In this document: positions 6,984-56,329 of the stretch, piece after piece
How positions within the stretch are numbered: position 1 is the first letter of the stretch
Layout of the letters: each line of letters opens with the position of its first letter
Virus record (IMG/VR): IMGVR_UViG_3300049911_000129
Location: 35,995-99,994 of that record
Direction: 5' to 3' (one strand)
DNA length: 64,000 bases
From: a virus
Notes under the pieces: model-generated
What the model was told of the DNA's origin: nothing
Seen by the model: only the letters and a program-made list of their open reading frames with translations
The model's database searches: none
Position numbers and translations under genes: made by a program

Positions 6984-7000
6984 TTGAGACACAACGGAGC

Positions 7001-7057
7001 GGGCTTACTGCCCCTCCGCGTGCCCACCGCCTGGTGGGCGCACGATAGGGCAGAAGG
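7001..7057 (+). promoter_or_regulatory. conserved intergenic hairpin, copy C
   Basis: GGGCTTACTGCCCCT...GGGCAGAAGG with different but paired inner stem. Confidence 0.6.
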
Positions 7058-7072
7058 CAGAGGAGACAGCAG

Positions 7073-7582
7073 ATGGCTAGGGCAACGAGACGGGAGTTCA
7101 CGGTAGGGCAGGAGGTCATGGTGTGCAATGGGCGGCCGTCGCGCTACTCGCCTCAGGGCTACTGGCAGTTCGCGGTGGTCGCGGAGCCGGACGTCTTCGA
7201 GGGTCGACGCAGCTTCTACGGCAGCCGTGCCAAGCGCCACTACGTCAGGGTCCAGTACGTCAACCACGACGGGACGGTGGAGTCCTGGGTTCACGGCGTC
7301 CTCAACGCCAGGAACGCGATCCTCAGCATGGAGGACTACGAACCGATCAAGGCGGCCCGGCTGGCCAGGGAGCAGAGGGAGCGCGAGCAGCCGGCGCGCG
7401 AGGCGGCCGAGAGGATGCGCGAGTGCGGGTTCTACGCCCGCGAGATCATCGGGTGCGTCCAGGACTACAAGCCGGACGGAGGCCCAGGCTTGGTCGAGGT
7501 GATCACCCAGTACCTCGTCGAGACGTTCGAGAAGACGAAATGGGACGCTGACGCGCGGAGCCGGTACATCGCGACTAGGTAG
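7073..7582 (+). CDS. hypothetical protein
   Basis: AGGAG RBS, 169 aa. Confidence 0.7.
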   Translation: MARATRREFTVGQEVMVCNGRPSRYSPQGYWQFAVVAEPDVFEGRRSFYGSRAKRHYVRVQYVNHDGTVESWVHGVLNARNAILSMEDYEPIKAARLAREQREREQPAREAAERMRECGFYAREIIGCVQDYKPDGGPGLVEVITQYLVETFEKTKWDADARSRYIATR

Positions 7583-7589
7583 GCCGTAG

Positions 7590-7670
7590 CGTTTGGCTAG
7601 TTCGCGCATTATTATATGTGAACGGCCTGTCATGAGGCGTTCGTGTTTCGGCGGATGTGCCGATTATAAT
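7590..7670 (+). promoter_or_regulatory. two tandem putative early promoters
   Basis: GTTT(7591)-TATTAT(7610) and GTTT(7645)-TATAAT(7665). Confidence 0.6.
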
Positions 7671-7728
7671 AGTGAAGGCACACGGACTTTAACAATCGTA
7701 TAGGTGCCCTAGCAGAAAGGAACTGGTC

Positions 7729-8037
7729 ATGGCAAATGGTTGGGACACAGTCAAGTTCGACAAGGACGGCACGATCAAGCTAGAGGAGCGCGGGACGGCC
7801 ACAGTCGAGGAGCTCAGGCGTCTGGACGCGGACGACGTCGAGTTTTACGTCGACCGCTTGGTGGACATAAAGCGGGCCCGGGAGCTCGGGGTTCTGGACC
7901 TCATCCGGTGCGCGACGTGCATTCGGCGACTGAGCGCGTATGGCGACGAGCCCGTATGCCTGTGTGAGACGTCGTCTGACGACGAGACGCCAGAAGATCG
8001 CAACCTCACTGAGCTGGCGCACATCCAGCACGGCTAG
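7729..8037 (+). CDS. hypothetical protein
   Basis: AAAGGA RBS; CxxC...CxC. Confidence 0.7.
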   Translation: MANGWDTVKFDKDGTIKLEERGTATVEELRRLDADDVEFYVDRLVDIKRARELGVLDLIRCATCIRRLSAYGDEPVCLCETSSDDETPEDRNLTELAHIQHG

Positions 8038-8040
8038 CGG

Positions 8041-8105
8041 AACCAAGGGGCTTCTGCCCCTTGACCCGGCGACCGGCTTCGGCCGTCGGATGAACGGGCA
8101 GAAGG
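8041..8105 (+). promoter_or_regulatory. conserved intergenic hairpin, copy B
   Basis: CTTCTGCCC/GGGCAGAAG perfect stem, inner GGC-TTCG-GCC hairpin. Confidence 0.65.
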
Positions 8106-8125
8106 TAGCGAAGGAGACGACGATT

Positions 8126-8278
8126 ATGGTTGACCCGAATGCGGTGCCGGTATGGCTGAGGCAGCTGCGCGAGGAGCAGAACGCGAAGCTGGAGGCCAGG
8201 ATACCGCCAGAGAAGCGCGGGAGATTCCGCCTGGTCATGGCGGTCCTCCAGGCGCTGGACGAGCAGCAGAGGAGCTAG
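8126..8278 (+). CDS. small hypothetical protein
   Basis: AAGGAG RBS, ATG. Confidence 0.6.
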   Translation: MVDPNAVPVWLRQLREEQNAKLEARIPPEKRGRFRLVMAVLQALDEQQRS

Positions 8279-8280
8279 AC

Positions 8281-8679
8281 ATGGGCGACGAGGACGGCAA
8301 GGCAGAGGAGCAGGCGGTAGGGACGGCCGACGTCGGGCTCGCCAACGGGCGGTGCCCGTTCAGGGGCATAGTGCTAGGCGGAGGCGGCGACGCCCACACG
8401 TTCATGGTCGACGAGCGGTGCCCACCTGGCATCCCGGCCATGAGGGTTCGGGTGTATCTCGACAAGAACAAGCCGGACGAGGAGGTCCCCGGCGCGATGT
8501 TGGTGCCGGTACTGCGCGAGGGCACGCCGTGCTACGAGTGCATGGATACGCTTAGGCGCGAGGAGGAGGCGGGGTTCGGCAAGAGCAGGCACAAGATCAG
8601 CGACTTCAAGCCGGCGAGGCGGCGGGCATCCGGGCGGCGCAAGCCGCGGAGGAAGTATGGCTGGCAAGCGAGCCGATAA
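8281..8679 (+). CDS. hypothetical protein
   Basis: GGAG RBS, basic C-terminus. Confidence 0.6.
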   Translation: MGDEDGKAEEQAVGTADVGLANGRCPFRGIVLGGGGDAHTFMVDERCPPGIPAMRVRVYLDKNKPDEEVPGAMLVPVLREGTPCYECMDTLRREEEAGFGKSRHKISDFKPARRRASGRRKPRRKYGWQASR

Positions 8680-8926
8680 GTCGAAGGTCTTCGGGACCTT
8701 CATGGTCAACCCGACGACGCAGCTCCGGGTCTCGACGCAGACGAACCCGAAGACCGGGGTGCGTTCGGTCAGCATCAGGAAGTATTGGCTTCCGGCCAGC
8801 GGGGACCGGTTCCTGCCGACGAGGATAGGGGTCGAGATCTACCGCGAGCACGCGACGGGCGTGCTGGACGCCATCGTCGAGGCCGTCAGGGACCTGATGG
8901 CGGCGCCAGTCAAGGGAGGCATATGA
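8657..8926 (+). CDS. PC4/YdbC-like ssDNA-binding protein
   Basis: LRVS...VSIRKYW...FLPTRIGVEI pattern typical of PC4 fold. Confidence 0.7.
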   Translation: MAGKRADKSKVFGTFMVNPTTQLRVSTQTNPKTGVRSVSIRKYWLPASGDRFLPTRIGVEIYREHATGVLDAIVEAVRDLMAAPVKGGI

Positions 8927-9120
8927 TGAGCAAGTGCGCATGCGGCGGGAACATGGTCAAGGTCTGGGACACGGAGCAGGACCTGCCGAGGGTGAAGTGC
9001 GACAACCCAATGCACAGCCCGGCGCGCCGCTGGGAGGGTGAGGACGATCCCCTGATCCAGCTGCTGAAGACCCCGGGCGCGTTCGTCATGGACATGACAG
9101 ATCCGGAAGGGATCCGATAG
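8923..9120 (+). CDS. small Zn-ribbon protein
   Basis: CACGGNM...KCDNPMH. Confidence 0.55.
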   Translation: MMSKCACGGNMVKVWDTEQDLPRVKCDNPMHSPARRWEGEDDPLIQLLKTPGAFVMDMTDPEGIR

Positions 9121-9136
9121 CGAAAGGAGAATCGCC

Positions 9137-9766
9137 GTGGTGGCGATGCAAGCGATAGGCAAGAGTAGGGTCGGACGCGTGGGGTGTGGACACCCGGCGC
9201 CGTGCGGGTGCCCATACGGCGGCGCCTGCTGCGAGGACTGCGTACTGCCAGATTGTGTGCTGCCCGACGAGGTCGAGCTCCGCGGCGCTGCCAGGGCGCG
9301 CCCGTCGGTCGACAAGGTCATGATGATACTGGCGGGCATGCTAGCCGGTGGGCCACGGCCGCTGCCGGAGATACGGATGGCCGTGGAGGGCATAGGGTTC
9401 GGCGAACGAACCCTGTACGCGGCGAAGGACACGCTCGGCATCGTCGGCCAGATGTCCCGCGCGGGCGGGCATCCGACGTGCCTGTGGGCGTTGCCGCCGC
9501 GGGCGACCGAACCACTGGTGGAGGACGAGCCGGCCAAGCCGGCCGCCCCCGCGAGGACGGGGCGTATATTGAAGGTAGGGGACCCGTGTCCGCGCTGCCG
9601 CGGGCGGCTATTCAGCGAGCGGGGCGACCTCTACTGTCTGAACTGCGGGTACAGGGAGTCGGACGGCATCGATGCGGCGCTCGCGATGATCACGACTGAG
9701 CGTGCACTTATCCGTCCCGTACCACTTCCTCTGGTTGCTAGAGGTGAGGAGGTCAGCGATGACTAG
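9137..9766 (+). CDS. Cys-rich putative DNA-binding protein (wHTH-like middle, Zn ribbon)
   Basis: CCEDCVLPDC; CPRCRG...CLNCG. Confidence 0.6.
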   Translation: MVAMQAIGKSRVGRVGCGHPAPCGCPYGGACCEDCVLPDCVLPDEVELRGAARARPSVDKVMMILAGMLAGGPRPLPEIRMAVEGIGFGERTLYAAKDTLGIVGQMSRAGGHPTCLWALPPRATEPLVEDEPAKPAAPARTGRILKVGDPCPRCRGRLFSERGDLYCLNCGYRESDGIDAALAMITTERALIRPVPLPLVARGEEVSDD

Positions 9767-10223
9767 GATAGCCATCGTAGGCCCGAAGTCGGGCGTCAAC
9801 TCGATGCGTGTGGTCAGCTACGTGCGCGACCTCCCGGTCGGGACGGTAGTGGTCTCGACGGGGGCGAAGGGCGTAGAGGAAACCGCGGCGTGGGCGGCCG
9901 AGGCACGCAGCCTCGAGACGGTCGTCTGCCGACCCGACTGGGACCGCTTCGTCCTCGTCGGCGGCAGGGGCACCGACAAATGGGCCGCGCTCGACGCCAT
10001 GAACAACGACATCGTGGACAAGTGCGACGAGGTGCATGCGTTCCTGCACTGGGGCTCGAGGGACGGCCATGTGCTGTCGGTGGCGGCCAAGGCCCGGCGG
10101 CTCGGCAAGACGGTCATCGTCCGCTGGGACAACGGCAACGAGGCCATAGTCCCACGTCTGCCGCCCCCGCTGCGCGCGTCGCTCGCGCGATTCCTATTCC
10201 CATGGGAGGACGCGTCGCGATGA
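9759..10223 (+). CDS. SLOG-family (DUF2493/YspA-like) protein
   Basis: RIAIVG, VVSTGAKGV, PDW, NDIVDKCD, ARRLGK. Confidence 0.7.
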   Translation: MTRIAIVGPKSGVNSMRVVSYVRDLPVGTVVVSTGAKGVEETAAWAAEARSLETVVCRPDWDRFVLVGGRGTDKWAALDAMNNDIVDKCDEVHAFLHWGSRDGHVLSVAAKARRLGKTVIVRWDNGNEAIVPRLPPPLRASLARFLFPWEDASR

Positions 10224-12359: not shown

Positions 12360-13013
12360 ATGCACACGAGCATTAGGCTAGATGCGCTGAGGCTGCCGCT
12401 GGCAGACGAGAGCGTCGACACCATCATCACGGACCCGCCGTGGCACTTCGACCGGCGCGTTAGCGCGAGGGCGAAGGCCGTCAAGGCGACGGACTACCCC
12501 ATCCTGGAGGACCACCAGATGCGGGAGGCGATCGCCGAGGCGTGCAGGGTCCTCAAGCCCGGCGCGCACCTCTATGTGTTCTGCCCCGAGCAGAAGCTCG
12601 GCTGGCTGCTTGGCAACTACCCCCTGATGCTGGAGCACTTCCATACGCTCGTCTGGGTGAAGACGCGCAAGGATGGGACAGACTTGAGGATCGGGCTTGG
12701 GCATTCGTATCGCGTCGCGCATGAGTTCATCGTGTGCTTCTGGCGGCGGTCGTATGACGACGTCAGCGCCGAGATGGCAGGTAAGCCGGTGAAGTTGCGC
12801 CGGCGGCCGCTCATGACTAAGTCTGTTCCGACTGTGTTCTTCGCCCCGCCGATCGGCGGGTCGCGCAAGCCGCCGGAGATCTACGCCGCGCTGGCCCGGG
12901 CGAGCACGCCGCCGGGTGCTGTCATCCTGGACATGTTCGCGGGGCTTGACCCCCTCGGGCAGGCCGGGTTGGACGGGTATGTTACTGTCAGCGGAGACAT
13001 CAGAGCATGGTGA
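12360..13013 (+). CDS. DNA N6/N4 methyltransferase (beta class)
   Basis: ESVDTIITDPPW, RVLKPG, LVWVK, SRKP, VILDMFAG. Confidence 0.8.
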   Translation: MHTSIRLDALRLPLADESVDTIITDPPWHFDRRVSARAKAVKATDYPILEDHQMREAIAEACRVLKPGAHLYVFCPEQKLGWLLGNYPLMLEHFHTLVWVKTRKDGTDLRIGLGHSYRVAHEFIVCFWRRSYDDVSAEMAGKPVKLRRRPLMTKSVPTVFFAPPIGGSRKPPEIYAALARASTPPGAVILDMFAGLDPLGQAGLDGYVTVSGDIRAW

Positions 13014-15643
13014 ATGACGGTGAGGCTCCGCGCTACAAGCCGCGGACCGACAGGCAGCTGAACGACGTCCGGAACCTGGAGGCGGAGGATGTGCCGCCCC
13101 TGACTCCGGGCGCTACCGCGTTGCGGCGGGACGTGCGCAACCCGCGGTGCGAGGCGTGCCCGCTGTCGCAGGGGGTTCTCAACGTCTGCATGATGGGCGA
13201 CGGGCCGGTCCCCGCCGACGGGATGATCATCGGTTCGGCCCCGGGACTGGTGGACGACAGGGTCGGGAGCCCGCTGCGCAATGAGCCCGGGATCTACCTG
13301 GACGAGATACTCGCCGACGCCGGGGTGGCGCGAGACGACGTCTATGTGACGAGCGCGGTCAAGTGCGCTCCGCCGGCCGCCGGCAACAGGGACGCGGACA
13401 TTAAGAAGGCGATCAAGCCGTGCGGCGTCTACCTCAGGCGGGAGATCGAGGCAGTGAAGCCGAAGGTCATCCTCCTCATGGGCGCACCGGCGCTCAAGGC
13501 CATCACCGGCAAGGAGGCAGTGACATCGGCCAGGGGGCAGGAGTACTTCGACGAGGACCTCAAGGCGTGGGTCATCGTATCGATGCACCCGTCGTGGGTC
13601 CTAGAGCACCCCAACGGCCACGACAACTTCTATGGCGACGTCGGGAGGTTCGTGCGCAGGCTCCGCGGGGAGGCGCCACCGGCCGACCCGGAGGTCAGGA
13701 TCTGCATGACGCGCGAGGAGGTGGATCTCTGCCTCGCGAGGTTCGAGAAGGCCGGCCCGTTCAGCTGCGACCTCGAGACCCAAGGCTTCTTCGACTTCAG
13801 GACCGGCGCCAAGATATGGATGCTCGCGCTGTCGGACGACCCGCAACTGGGCTTCGTCATCCCGCTCGAGCACCCTGAGTCGCCGTGGGTTGGGCACGAG
13901 TCATACCTGCGAGACCTGTGGACCCGCATCGGCGCGCTGCTCGAGGGCGGCAAGACGGTGTGGCACAACGCCAAGTTCGACTCGCGGTGGACATACCGCC
14001 GCGGCATCACACCGAACGTCTGGTTCGACACGGCCACCGCGGCCCACCTGCTGGACGAGAACAGGCCGATAAACCTCGAGGACCTGGCGGTCTCCGAGCT
14101 CGGCGCGTCGCGCTGGGGCAAGGGCAAGATCAAGTTCGATCCGCCCGATCCGCTCGAGAAGATGGCCATCTACTCCGGCGTCGACGTCGCGCATACGCAC
14201 GGGCTCTACATGAAGTTCCGCGAGAAGCTAGGGGCGGACCAGCAGCTCGCCAGGCTGTACAAGTACGCCTGCCTACCGGGGGCGGCCGCGCTCTGCAAGG
14301 CAGAGGTGCACGGCATATGGCTCGACCAGAAGCGGCTGGAGACGCGCGAGGGCGAGACAAAGGTACTCGTGGCGGAGACGGTCGAGAAGCTGTACAACTT
14401 CGTCCCGCCGGCGATGCTCGGCGACGCGGAGGCCCAGGCGGCGAAGTCGAAGCTCGGGCACCCGTTCGGGTCGAGCTCGACATTCCTCCTGGAGTGGCTG
14501 TTCGGGGAGGCGGGCCTCGGGGTCAAGGCGCACAGGCTGACGCCGAAGAAGAAGGCGCCGGCGACCGACAAGAGCGCCCTCGACGAGCTCGCGGGCCAGC
14601 ACCCGGCGATCGACCTCGTGCTGATGCTCAGGCACGCCGAGAAGCAGATCACCTTCTTCAACCAGTGGAAGGAGTTCTTAGGACCCGACGGCAGGCTGCA
14701 CCCGTTCTTCAACATGGTCGGCACCGTGACCGGCCGGAGGAGCTGCGCCACGCCGAACCTGCACCAGGTGCCGCGTGAGGTCTACTTGAAGTCCATCTTC
14801 GGCGCGCCTCCTGGGTGGCGGTTCATCGACGCTGACTACTCGCAGGTCGAGCTGCGCATCGCGGCGTTCCTGTCCGGCGACCCGATCATGCTGCTGGCGT
14901 TCCAGTTGGGGCGGGACATCCACTCCCTGACGGCGGCGCAGGTGACCGGCAAGTTCGGGAAGCTGGTAGACCGGTTCGGCCTCGCCGGGCAGGGCATAGA
15001 GGACCTGCTCCACCACGATGACTTCATGGCCGCTATAGAGTCGGCGGTCACCAAGGTCGAGAGGGATATGGCCAAGGCGGTCAACTTCGGGTTCCTCTTC
15101 GGCATGGGCGCCCGCGGGTTCCAGGTGTACGCGAAGGAGAAGTACGGGCTGACCGTCTCGCTCGAGGAGGCGACGGCGTTCCGGGCCATGTTCTTCGGCC
15201 TGTACCGCGAGCTCCTGTCGTGGCACGCGCGGCAGAAGGCGATCCTGCGGAAGTCGCTGGAGGTCAGGGACCCGGCCGGTCGGCTGCGGCACCTGGCGAC
15301 CATCATGTCGGTCGACGAGGGGCTACGCGCAGAGGCCGAGCGGCAGTCCATCAACTCCCCGGTGCAGGGGTTCGGCGGCGACTTGACGCTGACGTCAGAG
15401 GGCATCTTCGGGCTCGAGCTGGACTGGGACGAGTGCAGGATGGTCGGCGAGGTCCATGACTCGATACTGTTCGAGGTCAGGGAGGACCTGGTTGACAAGT
15501 GGGTACCCGTCATAAAGAAGGTCATGGAGTACCCCGAGCTGCGTGAGCGATTCGGACTGGAGTTCACCGTCCCGCTGGTCGCCGACGTCAAGGTCGGCCA
15601 GCATTGGGGCGAGTGCGAGCTGTGGCGGGAGAAGGCCGCATAG
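13007..15643 (+). CDS. polA: DNA polymerase family A with N-terminal uracil-DNA-glycosylase-like domain and 3'-5' exonuclease
   Basis: CEACPL, GSAPG, VKC, HPS (UDG family 4-like); DLET, HNAKFD, FDT (exo); TGRRSC..PNLHQVP, DYSQVELR, AKAVNFG, NSPVQG, VHDS. Confidence 0.95.
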   Translation: MVNDGEAPRYKPRTDRQLNDVRNLEAEDVPPLTPGATALRRDVRNPRCEACPLSQGVLNVCMMGDGPVPADGMIIGSAPGLVDDRVGSPLRNEPGIYLDEILADAGVARDDVYVTSAVKCAPPAAGNRDADIKKAIKPCGVYLRREIEAVKPKVILLMGAPALKAITGKEAVTSARGQEYFDEDLKAWVIVSMHPSWVLEHPNGHDNFYGDVGRFVRRLRGEAPPADPEVRICMTREEVDLCLARFEKAGPFSCDLETQGFFDFRTGAKIWMLALSDDPQLGFVIPLEHPESPWVGHESYLRDLWTRIGALLEGGKTVWHNAKFDSRWTYRRGITPNVWFDTATAAHLLDENRPINLEDLAVSELGASRWGKGKIKFDPPDPLEKMAIYSGVDVAHTHGLYMKFREKLGADQQLARLYKYACLPGAAALCKAEVHGIWLDQKRLETREGETKVLVAETVEKLYNFVPPAMLGDAEAQAAKSKLGHPFGSSSTFLLEWLFGEAGLGVKAHRLTPKKKAPATDKSALDELAGQHPAIDLVLMLRHAEKQITFFNQWKEFLGPDGRLHPFFNMVGTVTGRRSCATPNLHQVPREVYLKSIFGAPPGWRFIDADYSQVELRIAAFLSGDPIMLLAFQLGRDIHSLTAAQVTGKFGKLVDRFGLAGQGIEDLLHHDDFMAAIESAVTKVERDMAKAVNFGFLFGMGARGFQVYAKEKYGLTVSLEEATAFRAMFFGLYRELLSWHARQKAILRKSLEVRDPAGRLRHLATIMSVDEGLRAEAERQSINSPVQGFGGDLTLTSEGIFGLELDWDECRMVGEVHDSILFEVREDLVDKWVPVIKKVMEYPELRERFGLEFTVPLVADVKVGQHWGECELWREKAA

Positions 15644-15947: not shown

Positions 15948-16181
15948 ATGACGAATGTCGATCTGGTCATGGCGCCCAGGTACCAGCGTGTACGCGCCAT
16001 TGACAGCCCCGACAACAGGGAGCGCGGCTTCGCAGGCAAGTGCGGTGAGATCCGGCACTACTCGTTTGGCGCGCAATCCTGGATGACCCCTGACGTACCA
16101 CCAAAGTCGTACGTCGACGTCGCGTTCGACGACGGGGCGTATGGGGTCAACATCTACGGTACAGAGCTGGAGGTCGAGTGA
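15948..16181 (+). CDS. hypothetical protein
   Basis: coupled ORF. Confidence 0.55.
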   Translation: MTNVDLVMAPRYQRVRAIDSPDNRERGFAGKCGEIRHYSFGAQSWMTPDVPPKSYVDVAFDDGAYGVNIYGTELEVE

Positions 16182-16903
16182 TGGACGCACCGGAGTACCC
16201 GAAGATCAAGACGCTGTGGGTCCGCGGCGAGGACCACAAGGTCATACCGTGGGGCTGGAGCCAGCCGGAGTTCGGGTACCTCCGCGACTGCCAGTGGGAG
16301 TTGACCGAGAAGGTCGACGGGACGAATATCCGCGTGGCGCTGGAGCCGTTCCCGGAGTCGGGTGGGAATCCGTTTGACGACTGGTTCCTCGGCCTCTACG
16401 GGCGCACGAACGCCGCGGATATCCCGCCGTTTCTGGCGGACAAGCTCATGAGGCTGTTCACGGCAGACAATCTGAAGGCGCTCTGGCGCGGTCAGAAGGA
16501 CTGCAAGGAGTGCGGCGGCTTCGGTCGCGTCGGTCCGGCGACCTGCGGGTGCGTCGTGCCGTACCCGATCACCCTCTACGGCGAGGGGTTCGGGGAGCGG
16601 ATACAGAAGGTCGGCCACAAGTACATCCCCGACGGCGTCGACTTTACGCTGTTCGACGTCAGGGTCGGCGACGTGTGGCTGAAGCGCGAGGACGTCTACG
16701 AGGTAGCCGATAGGCTGGGGATCTCGCGCGTGCCGGTCGTGAAGGTGGCGACGCTGCATGAGGCGGCCGTCATGGTGCGCAATGGGATCCGATCGGCCTG
16801 GGGCGACTTCGAGGCCGAGGGCGTGGTGGCGCGGCCGACGGTCGAGCTGCAGACGCGGTTCGGCCGGCGGGTCATAGGCAAGCTGAAGACGAAGGACTTC
16901 TAG
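16181..16903 (+). CDS. ATP-dependent RNA ligase (Rnl2-like)
   Basis: YPKI, TEKVDGTN (motif I), LYGEGFG, FDV, EGVVARP, KLK. Confidence 0.85.
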   Translation: MDAPEYPKIKTLWVRGEDHKVIPWGWSQPEFGYLRDCQWELTEKVDGTNIRVALEPFPESGGNPFDDWFLGLYGRTNAADIPPFLADKLMRLFTADNLKALWRGQKDCKECGGFGRVGPATCGCVVPYPITLYGEGFGERIQKVGHKYIPDGVDFTLFDVRVGDVWLKREDVYEVADRLGISRVPVVKVATLHEAAVMVRNGIRSAWGDFEAEGVVARPTVELQTRFGRRVIGKLKTKDF

Positions 16904-20913: not shown

Positions 20914-21339
20914 GTGGCGGATCGGGTCAGCCAGGAGGTGAGGAGCAGGATGATGTCGCGCATACGCGGGCGAGACACCGGCCCGGAGCTGGCGGTCAGG
21001 CGTGCGCTGCACGCGTGGGGCTACCGCTTCCGGGTGTGCTGCGCCGACCTTCCGGGCAAGCCCGACATCTGCTTCCACGCCAGGAGGCACGCGGTCTTCG
21101 TGCACGGCGACTTTTGGCACAGGTGCCCAATTCATACGCATAAGAAGAGGGTCGCGTCCAACGTCAGGTTTTGGGAGGAGAAGTTCGAGAGGAACGTCGA
21201 GCGCGACGCGCGGGTCGCGGCCGAGCTCAGGGCGCTCGGCTGGACGGTGCACGTGATCTGGGAGTGCGAGGTGAAGGACAGGGGCAAGCTGCTGAAGCTG
21301 GCGGCGGCGCTGGGTCCGCCGAGGTTGCGACATGGCTAG
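20914..21339 (+). CDS. vsr: Very-short-patch repair endonuclease
   Basis: RSRMMSRIRGRDTGPE, LPGKPD, FVHGDFWH, NVERD, GW.V.VIWECE. Confidence 0.95.
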   Translation: MADRVSQEVRSRMMSRIRGRDTGPELAVRRALHAWGYRFRVCCADLPGKPDICFHARRHAVFVHGDFWHRCPIHTHKKRVASNVRFWEEKFERNVERDARVAAELRALGWTVHVIWECEVKDRGKLLKLAAALGPPRLRHG

Positions 21340-25197: not shown

Positions 25198-25397
25198 CGC
25201 CGTTCAAGTCGCGCTGCCACTCCGACAAGTGCGACGGGCGAGAGCGGGAGTTCGAGAGGCCGCGCAAGATCATGCGCCTGTCGGACGCCGCGGTGGAGGC
25301 GCTCAAGGTCAGGTTCGCCTGCAAGGTGTGCCACGTCGACCAGGATTTCGTCATGACGCCGGCCAACGCGCTGAAGGCCGGACTGAAGAGCGTATGA
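25188..25397 (+). CDS. small Zn-ribbon protein
   Basis: CHSDKC...CKVC. Confidence 0.5.
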   Translation: MGLTPFKSRCHSDKCDGREREFERPRKIMRLSDAAVEALKVRFACKVCHVDQDFVMTPANALKAGLKSV

Positions 25398-26389
25398 GCG
25401 ACGAGAAGGTGCTGGACAGGGCCGGGCTGGAGATCCTGAGGGCCGAGCTGTCGAAGGACAAGTCCGTCGGCGGCATGCTCTTCTGGGGCAGCGACGAGCG
25501 CCTGGTGATCGAGTGGCTGCCGACCGGGATCGCGCCGTTCGACGCGGCCATGGGCGGAGGCTTCGCCTTCGGCCGGATAACCGAGCTGATCGGCGCGTTC
25601 TCCTCCGGCAAGACGCTGCTCGCGTACATGGCCGTCGTCCAGGCGCAGGCCCGCGGGCTGACAGCGTGCTTCGTGGACGTGGAGAAGTCATACGACCCCG
25701 AGTGGGCGAAGACCCTCGGGGTGAACACCGACGACCTATTGGTCGCGCGGCCGCGGTCCGGCGAGCAGGCCTGGGACATGGTCGAGCAGATGTGCCTCGC
25801 CGGCGTCGGGGTCGTCGTCATGGACAGCATCGCGCAGCTCGTGCCGACGGCGGAGGCCGAGGGCGGGATGGACGATCTCCAGGTCGGCGCCCAGGCGCGC
25901 CTCGTCAACAAGGGGCTGCGCAAGGTCACGCTCGCCAACGAGAAGACCATCGTCATCCTCATAAACCAGCTGCGGTCGGCCGTAGGCGTCAGGTACGGGA
26001 ACCCGGAGGTCCTGCCCGGCGGCAAGGGCCAGGGATTCGTCGCGAGCCAGCTCGTGCGCGTGAGGCGCGGGGACTGGATCGAGGAGGGTACCGGCGACCA
26101 CAAGCGGCGCATCGGATACATACTCATGATACGGGTAGAGAAGTCGAAGCTGGGCGAGCCGTGGCGGGAGGGGAGCGTCCCGTTCTTCTTCACCGGCCAG
26201 ATGGACGAGGCCGCCGCGATGGCCCCGCTGGCCGTGGAGCTCGGGATCGTCACCAAGAGGGGCGCGACATACACGCTGCCCAACGGCGACCGGATCATCG
26301 GGATGGCGAAGCTCAGGGAGGCCATATCGGCCGACGAGGGGCTGCAGGCCGAACTGCGGCAGAAGATAGCGGAGGTTCCGGAGTTCTGA
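25394..26389 (+). CDS. recA: RecA recombinase
   Basis: GRITELIGAFSSGKT, FVDVE, DSIA, GAQAR, INQLR, PGG. Confidence 0.95.
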   Translation: MSDEKVLDRAGLEILRAELSKDKSVGGMLFWGSDERLVIEWLPTGIAPFDAAMGGGFAFGRITELIGAFSSGKTLLAYMAVVQAQARGLTACFVDVEKSYDPEWAKTLGVNTDDLLVARPRSGEQAWDMVEQMCLAGVGVVVMDSIAQLVPTAEAEGGMDDLQVGAQARLVNKGLRKVTLANEKTIVILINQLRSAVGVRYGNPEVLPGGKGQGFVASQLVRVRRGDWIEEGTGDHKRRIGYILMIRVEKSKLGEPWREGSVPFFFTGQMDEAAAMAPLAVELGIVTKRGATYTLPNGDRIIGMAKLREAISADEGLQAELRQKIAEVPEF

Positions 26390-26562
26390 TGCGCCAGAGA
26401 CTGACAATCATCCTGAAGCGCGAGGGCGGGCGCGGCGACCACGTGGAGCGCGGCGAGTGCCTCCTCTACGTGGACGAGACCCCGCGCATCCTGACGCGCG
26501 GCAAGAACAAGGCCGGCAAGCGGCGACAGGGAAAGCAGCGCCCGAAGGTAGTGGATGCCTGA
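26389..26562 (+). CDS. small basic protein
   Basis: TGATG overlap. Confidence 0.45.
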   Translation: MRQRLTIILKREGGRGDHVERGECLLYVDETPRILTRGKNKAGKRRQGKQRPKVVDA

Positions 26563-26941
26563 GTGGGACCGTGAGCCGCCGCAGACGGCGCTGACGCGGC
26601 CGCACAGGCGCCTCATGGACCTGCTGAGGGGCATGGGACTGGAGGTGCGGGCCGAGGTCAGGGTCGGGCGGTACGTGCTCGACATCCTGGTGGACGAGCT
26701 CTGGGTCGGCCTGGAGGCCGACGGCCGGGCAGCGCACGCCGGGCCGCGGAAGCGGAAGCGCGACGCCGAACGGGACGTCTGGATACTGGTCAATGCCGGG
26801 ATCCCAATCCTGCGGGTCAGCGAGTGGGAGCTCAAGACGGCCAATAGACCCGCTTTGAACATGCGGATACACGAGTTCGTTGACTCGCATTCGGAGGACA
26901 CGGAGGAGAGGAGGGCGCGCGGCAGATGGGTGGTCGACTGA
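26555..26941 (+). CDS. DUF559/Vsr-like PD-(D/E)xK endonuclease
   Basis: VGRYVLD, LEADG..H, RDAERD, GIPILR. Confidence 0.8.
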   Translation: MPEWDREPPQTALTRPHRRLMDLLRGMGLEVRAEVRVGRYVLDILVDELWVGLEADGRAAHAGPRKRKRDAERDVWILVNAGIPILRVSEWELKTANRPALNMRIHEFVDSHSEDTEERRARGRWVVD

Positions 26942-27384
26942 GGGAGGTCCACGGGGAGCTGGACTACGACGGTGGGCTGACGCGGCTCAAGCACAAGCTG
27001 CAGGGCGCGCACGCCACGTGGCCACCGAGGGACGGGGTTCTGCAGATCATGCTCGACGAGCAGCAGAGCGTTCTCGACGCGATACAGGAGCGGCTGGGCG
27101 AGTCGGATCTACCGGCGTCGCTGCGGCTCGTCGAGATGGCCGACGCGATTGTTATGGAGGCGGCGGAGCTGAAGGCGTGGCTGCCGTGGAAGCGGTGGAA
27201 GGGCGACTACGGCCGCGAGCTCACCGACGAGGAGGAGGCCGGCGTCATCGAGGAGCTGGTCGACATCCTGCACTTCCTGATGGAGGCGCTCCTGATGGCC
27301 GGCGTGGAGTCGGAGTACGACCTGGGCGCGCTCTATCTCGCGAAGGCCGCCGTCAACAAGAAGCGGCAGGAGGACGGGTACTGA
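26926..27384 (+). CDS. dimeric dUTPase/dCTPase (all-alpha NTP pyrophosphatase)
   Basis: EAAEL...PWKRWK...EELVDILHF...K.AVN..RQEDGY. Confidence 0.85.
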   Translation: MGGRLREVHGELDYDGGLTRLKHKLQGAHATWPPRDGVLQIMLDEQQSVLDAIQERLGESDLPASLRLVEMADAIVMEAAELKAWLPWKRWKGDYGRELTDEEEAGVIEELVDILHFLMEALLMAGVESEYDLGALYLAKAAVNKKRQEDGY

Positions 27385-27418
27385 TGCCGCGAGGGTATCA
27401 TATTATAGGAGGGGACGC

Positions 27419-28483
27419 GTGAGATACGGGCCCTACATCGTATTCGAGGGGGCGGACGGGACCGGCAAGACGACGCTGGCCGAGGAGGTCGCCAGGCGGA
27501 CCGGCGTCGGCTACATACACTGCGGACCGCCGGACAAGCCAGCGCTCGAATACTACCTGCAGAAGCTGCGCTCGGTCGAGGGGCCGGCCGTGGTCGACAG
27601 GCTGCACCTCGGGAGCTACTGCTACGGGCTGCCGTTCCGCAACACGGCGGACCTCACGGAGTTCGAGGAGTGGCTGATTGAGGGGTTCCTCTGGGCGCAC
27701 GGTGCGCTCCTCGTCTACTGCACGATCCCACCGGACGTCGTGGACCGCAACCTAGCGCGCGGGCCAGACAACGCGGACGCGGTGATCTACGAGGACCCCG
27801 GGAAGCGGGCGGAGGTTAGGCGCCTCTACGAGGAGAGGATGCTGACGACCGAACTGCTGTCCGTACGGTACGACTACACGAGCTGCGATCACGTCTTCGA
27901 TGCCGCCGCGGCCTACGCCGAGTCCATGATCTACAGCATGTACCGGAGGCGATCCGGCCTCCCGGAGTTCGACGCCATAGGCAACACGGTCGACCCGCAC
28001 TGGGTGCTCGTAGCGGACAGGCCGCACTGGTACGGGCGCGCCCTGGCGAGGGATCGCGGGCAGCGCTTCATGGAGCGGGTCAGCAGGCGGTCGACGGGCC
28101 TCGCGCTGGACGCGGAGTCGGACCGGCACCTGTACATGGCGCTGAAGGCCGCCGGGCTGAGGCTTGGCGACATGTGCCTGTTCAACTCGGTGCAGGGCGA
28201 CGAGCGGACCCTGGCCACGCACTCGCTGGATCTGTCTGACAAGCTGCTGTCGCCGTCAAGGCCGCCGATCGACATCGTCGCCCTCGGGCGGAACGCGGCA
28301 GCTGAACTGTCGTGCGTCGAGGCGGCGTACGGATACAGGATGGTGCCGAGCCCGTCGCACATCCGGCGGGTCCACTACAAGGACGTCGCCAGGTACGGCG
28401 CGGCCATCAGCGGCGAACGCCCGTGGGATGAGGGACAATGCGGCTTCTGCGGCATCGTCCGTTATGAAGGGGGGCAGGCATGA
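27419..28483 (+). CDS. dNMP (thymidylate-like) kinase with extra C-terminal domain
   Basis: IVFEGADGTGKTT, VDRLH; C-terminal VLVADRP...IVALGRNA. Confidence 0.8.
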   Translation: MRYGPYIVFEGADGTGKTTLAEEVARRTGVGYIHCGPPDKPALEYYLQKLRSVEGPAVVDRLHLGSYCYGLPFRNTADLTEFEEWLIEGFLWAHGALLVYCTIPPDVVDRNLARGPDNADAVIYEDPGKRAEVRRLYEERMLTTELLSVRYDYTSCDHVFDAAAAYAESMIYSMYRRRSGLPEFDAIGNTVDPHWVLVADRPHWYGRALARDRGQRFMERVSRRSTGLALDAESDRHLYMALKAAGLRLGDMCLFNSVQGDERTLATHSLDLSDKLLSPSRPPIDIVALGRNAAAELSCVEAAYGYRMVPSPSHIRRVHYKDVARYGAAISGERPWDEGQCGFCGIVRYEGGQA

Positions 28484-29370
28484 ACCCGGAGATCATCGTC
28501 GGAGAGTACGCGACGGCCGTCTGGCTTAACGCCATCCTCGCGCTGACCGAGCGGGGCAGGCGGGTCAGCCCGCGCGGCATAGGCACGGTCGAGCTGCGAC
28601 CGGCGATACTCGTCCTGGAGAACCCCCGGATGCGCTGGGTCGAGGTCCCCGAGCGGAAGCTGTCGAAGCGCCTCGGATACCTCGAGGCGCTGATGCTCCT
28701 GGCCGGCGTGAGCTACCCGGACCTGCTGATGAAGGCCGCGCCGCACTACTCCAATTTCGTAAACCCGGGGACGGGCGAGCTCGACGGGGCATACGGGCCG
28801 CGCGTCGGGCCGCAGCTGCCGTACGTCAGGGACCTGCTGAGGCGCGACCCGGACACCAGGCAGGCAGTCGTCACCGTCTTCGGGCCGGCCGACCACCACG
28901 AGTCGCTGGACGTGCCGTGCACGGTCAGCCTGCACTTCATGGTGCGGGACGGCGCGCTAGAGCTCATCACCTACATGAGGTCGAACGATGTCTGGCTCGG
29001 GTGGCCATATGACGTCGTGATGTTCACGGTGCTGCAGGAGGCGCTGGCCACGGACCTGGGGCTGGGGCTCGGGCAGTACACGCACGTGGACGGGTCGCTC
29101 CACCTCTACGACACCAACCGCGACAAGGTCGACCGGATCATCCACAGCTCATGGAGAATCATGCGGGCCCTGGCCTCGCCAGGCGACGCGCCGATGCCGG
29201 ATGGGGCGACGCTCGAGGAGCTGCAGGCGTACGCGGTCGAGGCGCTCGCGGCGTACCGGCGCAGCATCGAGGAGGGCTCTACCACGGAGTACGTCCTGCA
29301 GCGCGGCAGGTGGTTCCCGCCGTTCTTCGACGCGGCCATCCACGCGATGCTGAAGGGGAAGGGGGCGTAG
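28480..29370 (+). CDS. thymidylate-synthase homologue (probable dCMP hydroxymethylase/methylase type)
   Basis: AYGPR, DPDTRQAV, DVPCT, MRSNDVWLGWPYD, SLHLY. Confidence 0.9.
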   Translation: MNPEIIVGEYATAVWLNAILALTERGRRVSPRGIGTVELRPAILVLENPRMRWVEVPERKLSKRLGYLEALMLLAGVSYPDLLMKAAPHYSNFVNPGTGELDGAYGPRVGPQLPYVRDLLRRDPDTRQAVVTVFGPADHHESLDVPCTVSLHFMVRDGALELITYMRSNDVWLGWPYDVVMFTVLQEALATDLGLGLGQYTHVDGSLHLYDTNRDKVDRIIHSSWRIMRALASPGDAPMPDGATLEELQAYAVEALAAYRRSIEEGSTTEYVLQRGRWFPPFFDAAIHAMLKGKGA

Positions 29371-29372
29371 GC

Positions 29373-29654
29373 ATGCCGCACATCGAACAGAGGGAGCGCG
29401 ATGGGATAGACCCGCGCCGCGAGGGCCGCAGGAACGGCGGCGAGTGCGAGGGCCCGGGCGAGCTCAACTGGGTGCTGACGGAGGTCATCATCGGATACCT
29501 CCTGGCTAACGGGCTGCGCTACCGGACATGCAACGACATCGTCGGCGCGCTGGACAACGCCAAGGACGAGTTCCAGAGGCTCGTGCAGCACCCGTACGAG
29601 GACAAGAAGATAGCCGAGAACGGGAACGCCTATCCAGAGGAGGTATTGCCATGA
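29373..29654 (+). CDS. conserved phage protein (DUF6899-like)
   Basis: PGELN...NDIVGAL..AK.EF.R...PYEDKKI.ENG. Confidence 0.7.
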   Translation: MPHIEQRERDGIDPRREGRRNGGECEGPGELNWVLTEVIIGYLLANGLRYRTCNDIVGALDNAKDEFQRLVQHPYEDKKIAENGNAYPEEVLP

Positions 29655-30100
29655 ACCTCTACCTCGCCGGCCCGATAACGGGCTGCACCTACAAGGGGGC
29701 GACCAACTGGCGCGCGTCGTTCGCGGAGCGGGCGCAGGAGCTCGGGTACAACGTGTACAGCCCGATGCGGGGCAAGGAGCACCTGTCGCGCGTTCGGCGG
29801 CTCAGGCCGCACGGGTACGACAACCCGACGTCGACCGACAAGGCGATCATGCGCCGCGACTCGTTCGATGTCAGGCGCTCGGACGTGATCGTGGCCAACC
29901 TGAAGGGCGCCACGATAGTGAGCATCGGGACGGTGATGGAGATCGGGTGGGGATACCTGCTCGGCAAGTTCGTCATCGTAGTCATGGGGCACGACGACAA
30001 GGTACACGACCACGCGTTCGTCGAGCAGGCGGCGAGCATCATCGTCGAGACGCTCGAGGACGCCGAGACGGTGCTCGAGGTCCTGGCGGGCAGCATATAG
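29651..30100 (+). CDS. nucleoside 2-deoxyribosyltransferase-like protein
   Basis: YLAGPI, WR, RDSFDVRRSD, SIGTVMEIG. Confidence 0.85.
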   Translation: MNLYLAGPITGCTYKGATNWRASFAERAQELGYNVYSPMRGKEHLSRVRRLRPHGYDNPTSTDKAIMRRDSFDVRRSDVIVANLKGATIVSIGTVMEIGWGYLLGKFVIVVMGHDDKVHDHAFVEQAASIIVETLEDAETVLEVLAGSI

Positions 30101-30111
30101 AGGGAGGCCAG

Positions 30112-30954
30112 ATGGCAACAAAGGGCGGGGGCATAGGCAGACTGCTGCGCCAGCTCGGGTCGGATGACTGGCTCAGCCGGGTAGTGGACAACTACTTCAC
30201 GACCAAGTCCCCGGAGCGGTGGGTCCAGCCGGACTACACGATCCACCCCAGCGGATCCGGCCCGCCATGCGCGTTGGCCATCGAGCTGTGGATGCTCGGC
30301 CACCGCGGCGTTGTCAAGTCGCGCAACCGCCGCCGGATGGACAACGGGACGGACGCCCACAGGCGGTGGCAGCGGTACTTCGCCGAGATGCGGATCCTCG
30401 TGGCCAAGGAGTGGCCGCTGAGGGGCATCGACCCGACGGTGAGCGGGAAGATAGACCTGATCTTGCAGAATCCGGCGACCGGCGGCCTGTCGGTCGGGGA
30501 GATCAAGACGACCAACTCGCGGAAGTTCGCCACGCTGCCGCGGCCGACCGCGGACCGCGCTACTAACGCGAATCTCATGTACGCCTGGGATCGCGAGTGG
30601 TTCCTGCAGTTCGTCTGGTACTCGGTCAACGGCGACTACAACGGTCGGAAGTTCGTCGAGAAGTTCTTCCTGATAGAGAACACCGATGACCAGGACTTCA
30701 GGATAATCTACGTCGAGCCGACGCCGGAGCACGTCGCGGAGGCGCGGCGGGCGGCCGTGGCGGCGCAGGACGCGATACTCGGCGGCGAGCTGCTGGTGCG
30801 CTCGTTCGAGAAGGGCGACCGGGGCTGTAAGTGGTGCGACCACGACGGCGTATGCGATCTGTTGAGTAACGGGGAGGCAGGGATATGGGAGACGGTAAAG
30901 AAGCAGTTCAAGAGGCTAGGGATCCCGCTGAAGACTCCTGGACCTGGCAAGTAG
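30112..30954 (+). CDS. Cas4/RecB-like PD-(D/E)xK exonuclease
   Basis: HPS..GPPC, GTDAH, SGKIDL, GEIKT, CKWC....C. Confidence 0.8.
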   Translation: MATKGGGIGRLLRQLGSDDWLSRVVDNYFTTKSPERWVQPDYTIHPSGSGPPCALAIELWMLGHRGVVKSRNRRRMDNGTDAHRRWQRYFAEMRILVAKEWPLRGIDPTVSGKIDLILQNPATGGLSVGEIKTTNSRKFATLPRPTADRATNANLMYAWDREWFLQFVWYSVNGDYNGRKFVEKFFLIENTDDQDFRIIYVEPTPEHVAEARRAAVAAQDAILGGELLVRSFEKGDRGCKWCDHDGVCDLLSNGEAGIWETVKKQFKRLGIPLKTPGPGK

Positions 30955-51856: not shown

Positions 51857-52708
51857 ATGGGTGCGATGGTATTCAACACGAGGGCGCTGGGGCGCTTCTG
51901 GTACTGGATCGAGGAGCGGCACCGCATCTACATGAAGCGTCAGGCCGGCGAGCTGGCCCCGTGGACGCTCGACCCGGTGCTGCGCGACTACTTCTTCTGC
52001 AACGTCTTCAGGGAGCTGGACCCGGGGACCGTGTGGCTCAGGCAGGGCTGGACCGACCGGCACGGGTACGGGTCCGACGCGTTCGACGGCCCGACGCTCC
52101 TGTTCAACATCATCAAGTACCGGCTGTTCGGGACCGAGCGCGCCGGGGCGGCACTCGGCTACCAGACTGCGTGGGACGACTCCATGGCGGCCATCACCAC
52201 CCGACTGCTCACCCAGGCGCGGATGGACGGGCCGATCTACACGGCGGCCTACATGCACTCCGGCGGGCTGGCGGACCACGTCAAGCTGCTCGGCGACGTC
52301 TGGGCAGACAGGCACAACCTCTACGGGAGGATCGTCGCGGACCGCACGATCCAGGGGGCGACGAAGATCCTGACGGAGATCCCGCACTTCGGGCCGTTCA
52401 TGGCGTACGAGGTGGCCACGGACCTCAGGCACACGCCGGTGCTGGACGGTGCGCCGGACACGATGACGTGGGCCAACCCGGGCCCAGGCTCCTGGCGCGG
52501 GCTGAGGAGGATCTTCCCATACGTCAGCAAGGCGGAGGCCGTGGCGGCGATGGCACTGCTGCTGCTCTGGTCGCAGAGCAAGCTGGCGGCCTACGTGCCG
52601 CCCCTCGAGATGCGCGACATCGAGCACAGCCTCTGCGAGTTCGACAAGTACGAGAGGGCCTCGCAGCCCGGCGTGGTCGGGCTGAGGCGGTATGGGGTGA
52701 AGGCATGA
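51857..52708 (+). CDS. aGPT-Pplase1 / 5-hmdU DNA kinase helical-domain family protein
   Basis: ERHRIY.KR.AG..PWT.DPVL..Y.FCNVFRELD; AY; GPFMAYEVATDL; GPGS.RGL; DIEHSLCEFDKY. Confidence 0.8.
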   Translation: MGAMVFNTRALGRFWYWIEERHRIYMKRQAGELAPWTLDPVLRDYFFCNVFRELDPGTVWLRQGWTDRHGYGSDAFDGPTLLFNIIKYRLFGTERAGAALGYQTAWDDSMAAITTRLLTQARMDGPIYTAAYMHSGGLADHVKLLGDVWADRHNLYGRIVADRTIQGATKILTEIPHFGPFMAYEVATDLRHTPVLDGAPDTMTWANPGPGSWRGLRRIFPYVSKAEAVAAMALLLLWSQSKLAAYVPPLEMRDIEHSLCEFDKYERASQPGVVGLRRYGVKA

Positions 52709-56328: not shown

Positions 56329-56329
56329 G

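Follow-up and report, generated by a model that had tools for sequence, protein, structure and literature searches.

Does a phage gene for a thymidylate synthase (TS) homologue that has Asp at the position of Asn177 in E. coli ThyA, lying among other nucleotide-metabolism genes, mean that cytosine is replaced in the phage DNA? The question is raised by an operon at positions 26926-30100 of a 64,000-nucleotide stretch of viral DNA, which we call the window throughout and which comprises bases 35995-99994 of the single linear IMG/VR virus record IMGVR_UViG_3300049911_000129 (99,994 bp; CheckV completeness 79%). A sequence-only reading of the window had proposed a cytosine-directed pre-replicative pathway made up of a pyrophosphatase, a kinase, a TS homologue and a nucleoside deoxyribosyltransferase (NDT)-like enzyme. 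The core of that proposal, consisting of the pyrophosphatase, the Asp-type TS homologue and the kinase, is supported by sequence in our analysis, but the membership of the NDT-like enzyme is not borne out. We put a probability of roughly 65% on the operon being a pre-replicative pathway that supplies 5-hydroxymethyl-dCTP to the phage DNA polymerase by the logic of T4 genes 56, 42 and 1.

Organization of the operon

The operon lies within the replication module of the window. Its five genes encode the following proteins and domains:

26926..27384, + strand: all-alpha dimeric dUTPase/dCTPase-family pyrophosphatase with a WKRWK motif, 152 amino acids (PF08761, E 4.9e-12)
27419..27949, + strand: P-loop kinase domain of the thymidine monophosphate (TMP)-kinase/YorR-like type, spanning residues 1 to ~177 and containing the P-loop GADGTGKT and the motif DRLH
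27950..28483, + strand: uracil-DNA glycosylase (UDG)-superfamily-like C-terminal domain of ~175 residues, fused to the kinase (family consensus and PF03167 matches of relatives)
28480..29370, + strand: TS-fold enzyme, predicted dCMP 5-hydroxymethylase (PF00303, E 3.7e-19)
29373..29654, + strand: DUF6899 protein, 93 amino acids, with a CNDIVGALDNAKDEF core (PF21840, E 4.6e-16)
29651..30100, + strand: NDT/Rcl/MilB-superfamily enzyme (PF05014, Nuc_deoxyrib_tr, E 3e-13)

The genes are translationally coupled. ATGA overlaps join the kinase to the TS gene and the DUF6899 gene to the NDT-like gene, whose true start is the ATG at 29651 and not 29528, while the other junctions are gaps of 2-34 nucleotides. 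The overlaps and short gaps together indicate a single operon. The four contiguous genes named in the sequence-only reading are all real + strand open reading frames (ORFs) with family matches, but that reading overlooked the DUF6899 gene between the TS and NDT-like genes and the C-terminal domain of the kinase. The block running from the kinase through the TS homologue and DUF6899 to the NDT-like gene recurs in two IMG/VR contigs, with protein identities of 57-86% for the kinase, 67-73% for the TS homologue and ~80% for the DUF6899 and NDT-like proteins. A megablast search with the locus against the phage collection gave no match.

The TS homologue and its predicted product

The TS homologue has a Cys147 nucleophile, aligned with E. 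coli C146, and its other key residues are Arg127, Asp144, Thr148, Ser168, Asp170 and Asp178. The stretch RSNDVWLGWPYD covers residues 167-178, and its last Asp is D178. In our alignment D178 falls on N177 of E. coli ThyA, D179 of T4 gp42 and D186 of MilA, confirming the earlier assignment of this Asp to the ThyA N177 position. The Asp is kept in all 120 of the closest homologues.

We compared the key residues, in E. coli numbering, with those in the annotated records of ThyA, T4 gp42, RB69 gp48, the Xp12 TS homologue, SP10 gp188 and PaMx11 gp51. The known products are 5-hydroxymethyl-dCMP (5hm-dCMP) for T4 gp42, 5-hydroxy-dCMP for RB69 gp48 and hydroxymethyl-dUMP for SP10 gp188 and PaMx11 gp51, and Xp12 is a 5-methylcytosine (5mC) phage. 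At positions 126, 143, 146, 147, 167, 169 and 177 the TS homologue reads R-D-C-T-S-D-D, identical to T4 gp42. In line with the literature, the controls read L143, H147 and N177 in ThyA, N143, P147 and D177 in Xp12, E143 and N169 in RB69 gp48, and N177 in the SP10 and PaMx11 dUMP hydroxymethylases.

Previous work suggests how these positions may be read. N177D directs the enzyme to cytosine, L143D/E yields a hydroxymethyl instead of a methyl product through water access, and D169N leads to 5-hydroxy (PMC13326640). In MilA, Ala176 and Lys133 give the ribose preference, and Ser and Arg bring back the dCMP preference (PMC5175136). Positions 177 and 147 best discriminate cytosine-modified from unmodified metagenomic contigs, Asp177 and non-His147 being enriched in the cytosine-modified ones (PMC8670742). 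Accordingly, the Asp at the L143 position and the Thr at the H147 position argue against a 5-methyl product, the retained Asp169 (Asp170 here) argues against a 5-hydroxy product, an option described in 2026, and Ser167 with Arg126 favors a deoxy over a ribo substrate.

The nearest characterised relatives of the enzyme are hydroxymethylases as well. In a PDB search MilA is the best solved relative (E 4.5e-31, with E. coli ThyA at E ~1e-16), and the identity is 34% to SP10 gp188 (E 2e-34), 33% to PaMx11 gp51, 25% to Xp12 and 24% to T4 gp42. A quick maximum-likelihood tree (IQ-TREE) places the TS homologue in a large clade of metagenomic Asp-type sequences; SP10/PaMx11 form its sister group, and T4/RB69 and ThyA/Xp12 both lie elsewhere, with moderate support at the deep nodes (SH-aLRT only 82-86). 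The predicted enzyme would have arrived at the active site of gp42 along another branch of the family. In addition, no gene for dihydrofolate reductase (DHFR), ThyX, dCMP deaminase or a second TS was found in the 79%-complete contig. The residue signature, the hydroxymethylase relatives and the lack of a detectable DHFR, ThyX or dCMP deaminase together lead to 5hm-dCMP as the predicted product. The sequence-only reading had allowed either 5hm-dCMP or 5-methyl-dCMP; D143, T147, the SP10/PaMx11/MilA relatives and the failure to find a DHFR gene favor the former and disfavor the latter.

A dCMP methyltransferase, with 5mC in the DNA as in Xanthomonas phage Xp12, appears quite improbable. Asp177 by itself does suffice to convert a TS to a dCMP methylase, as N177D/N229D mutants show (cited in PMC8670742), and the Xp12 enzyme also has no hydrophobic residue at position 143, so that the L143 rule is not absolute. 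However, the TS homologue shares Asp143 and Thr147 with proven hydroxymethylases where Xp12 has Asn143 and Pro147, it is less similar to the Xp12 enzyme than to SP10 gp188 (25% against 34% identity), and it sits in the tree beside hydroxymethylases, far from ThyA/Xp12. Xp12 also encodes a DHFR beside its TS gene, and none was found in the contig.

Three other identities of the TS homologue were rejected. A ThyA is contradicted by D, T and D at positions 177, 147 and 143 and by the NCBIfam thymidylate-synthase equivalog cut-offs, all of which are missed widely (best score 65 bits against a cut-off of 327). A 5-hydroxy-dCMP synthase such as RB69 gp48 or DLP3 gp80 would have Asn at the D169 position, where Asp170 is kept. 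In a MilA-type CMP hydroxymethylase, Ala176 and Lys133 would be expected, and these are replaced by Ser and Arg (phmmer alignment to 5jnh/5b6d).

A kinase paired exclusively with Asp-type TS homologues

Direct sequence matches of the kinase are restricted to weak ones with P-loop proteins and TMP kinases. An AlphaFold model of the fusion was built from 17 homologues (pTM 0.82; pLDDT 87-92 over residues 1-110). The N-terminal ~180 residues match YorR/BSU20280 of B. subtilis (VIA Z 19.3 to 2axp) and TMP kinases (Z 13-15, with vaccinia TMPK at Z 15.0), and Foldseek matches the model to 3kb2 with E 5.8e-8. The P-loop and the DRLH motif are invariant across the kinase family. The deoxynucleoside monophosphate kinase of the sequence-only reading thus holds for the fold (Z 15-19), but the protein is not a plain kinase, being fused to a degenerate UDG-like domain.

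Scanning IMG/VR with the kinase-family alignment returned 80 loci, and in 72 of them a TS homologue lies near the kinase, mostly adjoining or overlapping its ORF. Every one of these 72 TS homologues has Asp177, and 66 have the full D143-D169-D177 signature. The control set consisted of TS homologues within 9 kb of the 80 closest IMG/VR relatives of the window's HMUDK_hel gene, a 5-hydroxymethyldeoxyuridine (5-hmdU) DNA kinase helical-domain gene discussed below. Among the 70 TS genes beside HMUDK_hel homologues, 69 have Asn177 and the other is unreadable at that position; the kinase family occurs in none of these 70 loci. No evidence for a role of the kinase in a cytosine pathway is stronger than its exclusive pairing with Asp177 TS genes. 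The UDG-like domain is fused to 35 of the 72 TS-linked kinases and missing from the other 37, and the many unfused members, the fold and the exclusive pairing together suggest that the kinase acts on a free nucleotide. These data support a dedicated 5hm-dCMP kinase, which would be at most a functional analogue of T4 gp1.

The C-terminal domain belongs to a family with the consensus LLVG(D/E)...PF...SS...NA...ALG..A...PHPQ..RF, the motif order of which we take to be that of family-4-type UDGs. UDG-superfamily hallmarks are a motif A of G(D/E)xP, a stacking Phe, a conserved Asn and a motif B of HPS/HPQ, and the motifs can be seen in the family consensus. PF03167 is matched by five of the 17 full-length kinase relatives and by seven of 29 isolated C-domains (best E ~1e-7), while the window kinase's own C-terminal domain has no Pfam match. 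The UDG assignment is thus based on the Pfam matches of relatives and on the motifs; fold searches with the full model returned kinase matches. In the window protein and its closest relatives the motifs are degenerate, with VADRP, FNS, an insertion before the Phe and PSPSH for PHPQH, and this degradation makes a glycosylase activity of the domain doubtful. We found no description of a kinase-UDG fusion in the literature, and tblastn with the fusion against the phage collection gave only three weak matches, all N-terminal.

Fusion to a domain from a superfamily of base-flipping DNA glycosylases might mean that the enzyme acts on DNA, with the UDG-like domain flipping out 5-hydroxymethylcytosine (5hmC) and the kinase phosphorylating its hydroxymethyl group, which would make the enzyme the equivalent for cytosine of the 5-hmdU DNA kinase. 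The subclade of the window kinase has lost the motif-B histidine, which would fit binding without excision. We regard this reading as improbable, since PaMx11 gp49, a 5-hmdU DNA kinase, resembles the enzyme over no more than 30 P-loop columns, both fold and DRLH motif are of the nucleotide monophosphate kinase type, and the 37 unfused TS-linked kinases do without the domain. A phage making 5hm-dCMP also needs a kinase that accepts it, for which T4 gp1 and RB69 gp159 are precedents.

A comparable arrangement is present in the Actinomycetia phage DSL-LC01 (OQ999401), where the DNA polymerase gene is immediately preceded, at positions 6973-9307, by genes for a 331-amino-acid 'thymidylate kinase', a TS homologue with Asp177 and a dCMP deaminase. 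The DSL-LC01 kinase weakly shares the C-terminal region of the window kinase. As the record of an actinophage with a cultured host, DSL-LC01 may serve as a tractable model of the module.

The pyrophosphatase and the proposed pathway

The pyrophosphatase scores 46.9 bits against PF08761 (cut-off 22.9), a family that T4 gp56 itself matches. BLASTP aligns the two proteins at 33% identity over 83 amino acids (E 6e-11), and they have in common WK(K/R)WK, ELVDI(L/F)HF and a C-terminal RQ..GY. The earlier statement that the T4 dCTPase belongs to the same all-alpha family as the WKxWK enzyme is therefore correct. Dimeric dUTPases of trypanosomatids and Campylobacter match the pyrophosphatase as well, at E 2e-5 to 6e-4.

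From the folds and families, the residue signature, the order and coupling of the genes and the kinase/TS pairing, we infer the following catalytic activities and the presence of 5hmC in virion DNA. The pyrophosphatase would convert dCTP and dCDP (and dUTP) to the monophosphate, supplying dCMP and at the same time removing the canonical triphosphate. The TS-fold enzyme, via Cys147, would then put the methylene group of 5,10-methylene-tetrahydrofolate on C5 of dCMP, and attack of water on the exocyclic methylene would release 5hm-dCMP. In this reaction Asp178 would select cytosine, Asp144 would admit water, and Ser168 and Arg127 would select deoxyribose. The TMP-kinase-like domain would phosphorylate 5hm-dCMP to 5hm-dCDP, from which a host nucleoside diphosphate kinase would make the triphosphate for incorporation by the family-A polymerase of the phage. 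The UDG-like domain and the DUF6899 and NDT-like pair would be accessories, with the NDT-like enzyme possibly trimming the canonical or unwanted nucleotide pool.

Several observations weigh against this pathway. The pyrophosphatase scores about equally against gp56 and against dimeric dUTPases, so that a preference for dCTP or dUTP is not assignable. The L143 rule is correlative, and the 5mC-making Xp12 enzyme has Asn instead of a hydrophobic residue at that position. With a contig that is 79% complete, the missing DHFR, deaminase and second TS are weak evidence. The TS gene (28480-29370, corresponding to 6001-6876 of L004, the closest IMG/VR relative) is more diverged than its neighbours, at 73% protein identity versus 79-95%; the individual values are 79-80% for the DUF6899 and NDT-like proteins, 86% for the kinase, 91% for the pyrophosphatase and 95% for RecA and Cas4. 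Finally, the UDG-like domain of the kinase and the HMUDK_hel gene hint at a DNA-level chemistry that the pathway leaves idle.

The DUF6899 and NDT-like pair

DUF6899 is a viral family. Aligning 31 homologues shows an extremely conserved 40-residue core that contains CNDIVGALDNAKDEF. The model of the window protein (pLDDT 78) has two long helices, predicted to form a helical hairpin, and a Foldseek search with it gave no match below E 4.5.

The best PDB matches of the NDT-like protein are weak and comprise the CMP N-glycosidases MilB, BlsM and BcmB (E 0.008-0.08). In the weak alignment with MilB (E 0.008), its VSIGTVMEIGW segment keeps the counterparts of Ser97, Gly99 and the catalytic Glu103. 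The kept catalytic residues and the CMP N-glycosidase matches make a nucleotide N-glycosidase likelier than a nucleoside transferase, and the protein is most likely a (deoxy)nucleoside 5'-monophosphate N-glycosidase, as judged from these residues. The MilB motif F-L-(G/A)-(G/A)-P-F-(R/K) is absent, the protein reading Y-L-A-G-P-I-T instead. A Phe-Arg/Lys motif that recognises the hydroxymethyl group occurs in all TS/MilA-linked MilB homologues (PMC4081090).

Among 12 IMG/VR loci with DUF6899, TS and kinase genes are found only in the two closely related contigs, and outside these two there is no TS homologue within 5 kb of DUF6899. A Nuc_deoxyrib_tr, DUF4406 or LOG/SLOG gene stands beside DUF6899 in six of the 12. 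As the DUF6899 loci mostly lack TS and kinase genes and often have an NDT-type gene, DUF6899 and NDT appear to form a module of their own that was inserted into the operon in this lineage. The NDT-like gene, which the sequence-only reading had counted as a pathway member, thus accompanies DUF6899 in phages lacking a nearby TS gene, and its product is without the Phe-Arg/Lys motif. In 2,6-diaminopurine phages an NDT removes dA preferentially, according to a preprint; by analogy, we would guess that the pair depletes a canonical or unwanted pyrimidine pool.

The solved matches of both enzymes bring up a ribonucleotide pair of the MilA/MilB type, which would convert CMP to hydroxymethyl-CMP and then to free 5-hydroxymethylcytosine, or alternatively a flavin-dependent 5-hydroxy-dCMP synthase like RB69 gp48. 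Among solved structures, the TS homologue matches MilA best and the NDT-like protein, although weakly, matches MilB, BlsM and BcmB best, and the two genes are 280 bp apart. We nevertheless consider these options highly improbable. The MilA ribose determinants are replaced by Ser and Arg as in deoxy-specific enzymes, the Phe-Arg/Lys motif of the TS/MilA-linked MilB homologues is Ile-Thr, DUF6899 and NDT occur in other phages without a TS gene, and the 5-hydroxy signature D169N is absent.

HMUDK_hel and possible DNA-level modification

Located 22 kb downstream of the operon is the HMUDK_hel gene, listed here with two further genes considered in this context:

51857..52708, + strand: HMUDK_hel, 5-hmdU DNA kinase helical domain of the 'aGPT-Pplase1' type (PF18723, E 1.7e-46, full length)
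52705-53412: Pol-beta-superfamily nucleotidyltransferase, its start overlapping the HMUDK_hel stop (ATGA)
61382-63085: 567-amino-acid protein with an S-adenosylmethionine-dependent methyltransferase domain, a family 2 glycosyltransferase (GT2) domain and tetratricopeptide repeats

HMUDK and aGPT-Pplase systems were predicted by Iyer et al. in 2013 (cited through PMC8989533). The HMUDK_hel protein is a homologue of PaMx11 gp50, the gene of which is located between those for the PaMx11 5-hmdU DNA kinase and dUMP hydroxymethylase. The full-length HMUDK_hel gene of the window stands in a genome whose only TS homologue found is of the cytosine type, while none of the 70 TS genes beside its relatives is. 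Its link to the operon is uncertain. It may belong to a uracil pathway in the missing 21% of the genome, reflect a shift to 5hmC or be a stray gene.

The gene nevertheless raises the possibility that 5hmC is only an intermediate, modified further after replication by HMUDK_hel, the UDG-like domain or the 61382-63085 protein to give a hypermodified cytosine. The full-length match of HMUDK_hel (E 1.7e-46), the occurrence of its family beside a kinase and a hydroxymethylase in thymidine-hypermodification clusters (PaMx11 gp49-gp51), the fusion of a UDG-fold domain to 35 of the 72 TS-linked kinases and the presence of a GT2-domain protein in the window all speak for it. We consider it possible but unlikely. 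Neither a PF18748 5-hmdU DNA kinase nor an amino-acid:DNA transferase like PaMx11 gp46 was found in the contig, with its 79% completeness. Neither of the two related contigs sharing the operon (G001 and G002) has an HMUDK_hel gene, nor does DSL-LC01, in a search for which PaMx11 served as positive control, and the 80 closest relatives of HMUDK_hel pair with Asn177 and not Asp177 TS genes. Moreover, M6 gp55 is dispensable in vitro for the glycinylation of 5-hmdU DNA (PMC8989533), where gp55 is assumed to be of the HMUDK_hel type from its synteny with PaMx11 gp50.

As to the GT2 protein, actinophage proteins combining GT2 and methyltransferase domains are usually tied to virion glycosylation, which counts against hypermodification. 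The 61382-63085 protein could glycosylate virion proteins or, less likely, 5hmC DNA. The 52705-53412 nucleotidyltransferase was set aside as an alternative activating enzyme, for it is a common actinophage nucleotidyltransferase: phages of Streptomyces, Gordonia and Mycobacterium frequently have homologues, and these are often annotated close to tRNA genes.

A bolder and decidedly unlikely proposal is that 5hmC in the DNA is processed at the DNA level, with the divergent HMUDK_hel protein, the UDG-like domain or both flipping out 5hmC and activating or substituting its hydroxymethyl group. If true, such a route, so far undescribed for cytosine, would give the thymidine hypermodification pathways their first equivalent for that base. 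In a smaller version of this proposal, the widespread kinase-UDG fusion would be a new bifunctional enzyme that couples the supply of 5hm-dCMP to clearing phage DNA of uracil or unmodified cytosine.

Genomic context

The GC content of the window is 65-68%, and nearly all of its genes are on the + strand. The host is probably an actinobacterium, a guess from only the GC content and the actinophage matches of a neighbouring gene. Other genes of the replication module and of the rest of the window are as follows:

9702-10223: SLOG-family protein, YspA/cpYpsA-related (PF10686)
12360-13013 and 56154-57506: two N6/N4-type DNA methyltransferases (PF01555)
13007-15643: family-A DNA polymerase with an N-terminal UDG domain (PF03167, E 4e-25)
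16178-16903: RNA ligase, accompanying a tRNA array
20914-21339: Vsr-type endonuclease (PF03852, E 2e-23)
25394-26389: RecA, replication-module neighbour
26555..26941, + strand: DUF559/MTES_1575 endonuclease, Vsr-like, PD-(D/E)XK (PF04480, 23.1 bits, cut-off 20.6; PF18741, E 1.5e-07)
30112-30954: Cas4-like nuclease, replication-module neighbour
55804-56328: peptide deformylase, accompanying the tRNA array
59907-61082: RtcB ligase, accompanying the tRNA array

A DnaB-like helicase, a primase and an RNA ligase are further replication-module neighbours of the operon. With the polymerase domain and the kinase-fused UDG-like domain, the phage has two domains of the UDG superfamily. The DUF559/MTES_1575 gene is directly upstream of the pyrophosphatase gene, which it overlaps by 16 nucleotides, and homologues stand at the same position in the IMG/VR loci L012 and L014. 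It is a conserved neighbour and at most a candidate pathway member. Both Vsr-type endonucleases could repair G:(hm)U mismatches or cleave cytosine-containing host DNA. The two PF01555 genes suggest that the phage may also methylate adenine or the N4 of cytosine. The PF10686 protein is a second nucleotide-binding protein of the SLOG/NDT clan in this phage. The RNA ligase, the peptide deformylase, the RtcB ligase and the tRNA array look like a set for tRNA repair and translation support.

Significance

Most likely, judging from the encoded proteins, the locus represents a T4-like replacement of cytosine by 5hmC, a known anti-restriction strategy, carried out here with enzymes mostly of other lineages. 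Such a replacement shields the DNA of a phage against restriction enzymes and CRISPR nucleases and hampers sequencing and cloning. The locus would place the T4 strategy in GC-rich phages, where the replacement would affect about one third of all bases. The tie of Asp-type metavirome TS genes to modified cytosine is already known; what is uncharacterised here are the UDG-like fusion, DUF6899 and the NDT-like add-ons. New activities in DNA modification or pool sanitation could come from the kinase-UDG fusion, from the DUF6899 and NDT-like pair or from HMUDK_hel, encoded here in a 'cytosine' phage. In addition, the two gene families provide a simple genomic predictor of the modified base, as 72 of 72 TS homologues linked to the kinase family have Asp177 and 69 of 70 linked to HMUDK_hel have Asn177.

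Comparison with known systems

The mildiomycin enzymes MilA, a CMP hydroxymethylase, and MilB, a hydroxymethyl-CMP N-glycosidase, are the best solved matches of the TS homologue and, weakly, of the NDT-like protein, with the catalytic Cys, Glu, Ser and Gly kept. In contrast to the mildiomycin pair, the window proteins lack the determinants for ribose (MilA) and for hydroxymethyl recognition (MilB), and their genes are set in a phage replication module. The thymidine hypermodification clusters of M6, PaMx11, ViI and SP10 contain the closest hydroxymethylases, and the window genome shares with them one HMUDK_hel gene. It differs from these clusters in that its TS homologue has Asp and not Asn, its kinase belongs to a family other than that of the 5-hmdU DNA kinases and an amino-acid:DNA transferase was not found, while its HMUDK_hel gene is 22 kb off and not conserved with the operon.

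The MetaGPA study of uncultured phages (eLife 2021, PMC8670742) described a TS homologue with Asp177 and non-His147 together with an NTP pyrophosphohydrolase, as in the window, and metavirome contigs with Asp177 TS genes were shown empirically to carry modified cytosine. The partners in that study, unlike those in the window, are a carbamoyltransferase, PRA-PH and deaminases; none was found here, the carbamoyltransferase without a dedicated search. The words 'kinase', 'UDG', 'DUF' and 'deoxyribosyltransferase' do not appear in the text of that paper.

In T4, gp56 (dCTPase/dUTPase), gp42 (dCMP hydroxymethylase) and gp1 (deoxynucleoside monophosphate kinase) follow the same three-step logic as the operon. 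The window pyrophosphatase is a true gp56 homologue (PF08761, 33% identity), and the TS homologue has the gp42 residues at positions 126, 143, 146, 147, 167, 169 and 177. The predicted hydroxymethylase, however, is only 24% identical to gp42 and falls in the clade of the SP10/PaMx11 dUMP hydroxymethylases and MilA, and the kinase, of the TMP-kinase/YorR-like type, carries a fused UDG-like domain. A glucosyltransferase of the T4 type was not identified in the window phage. Finally, the genes that are scattered in T4 are gathered into one operon in the window phage.

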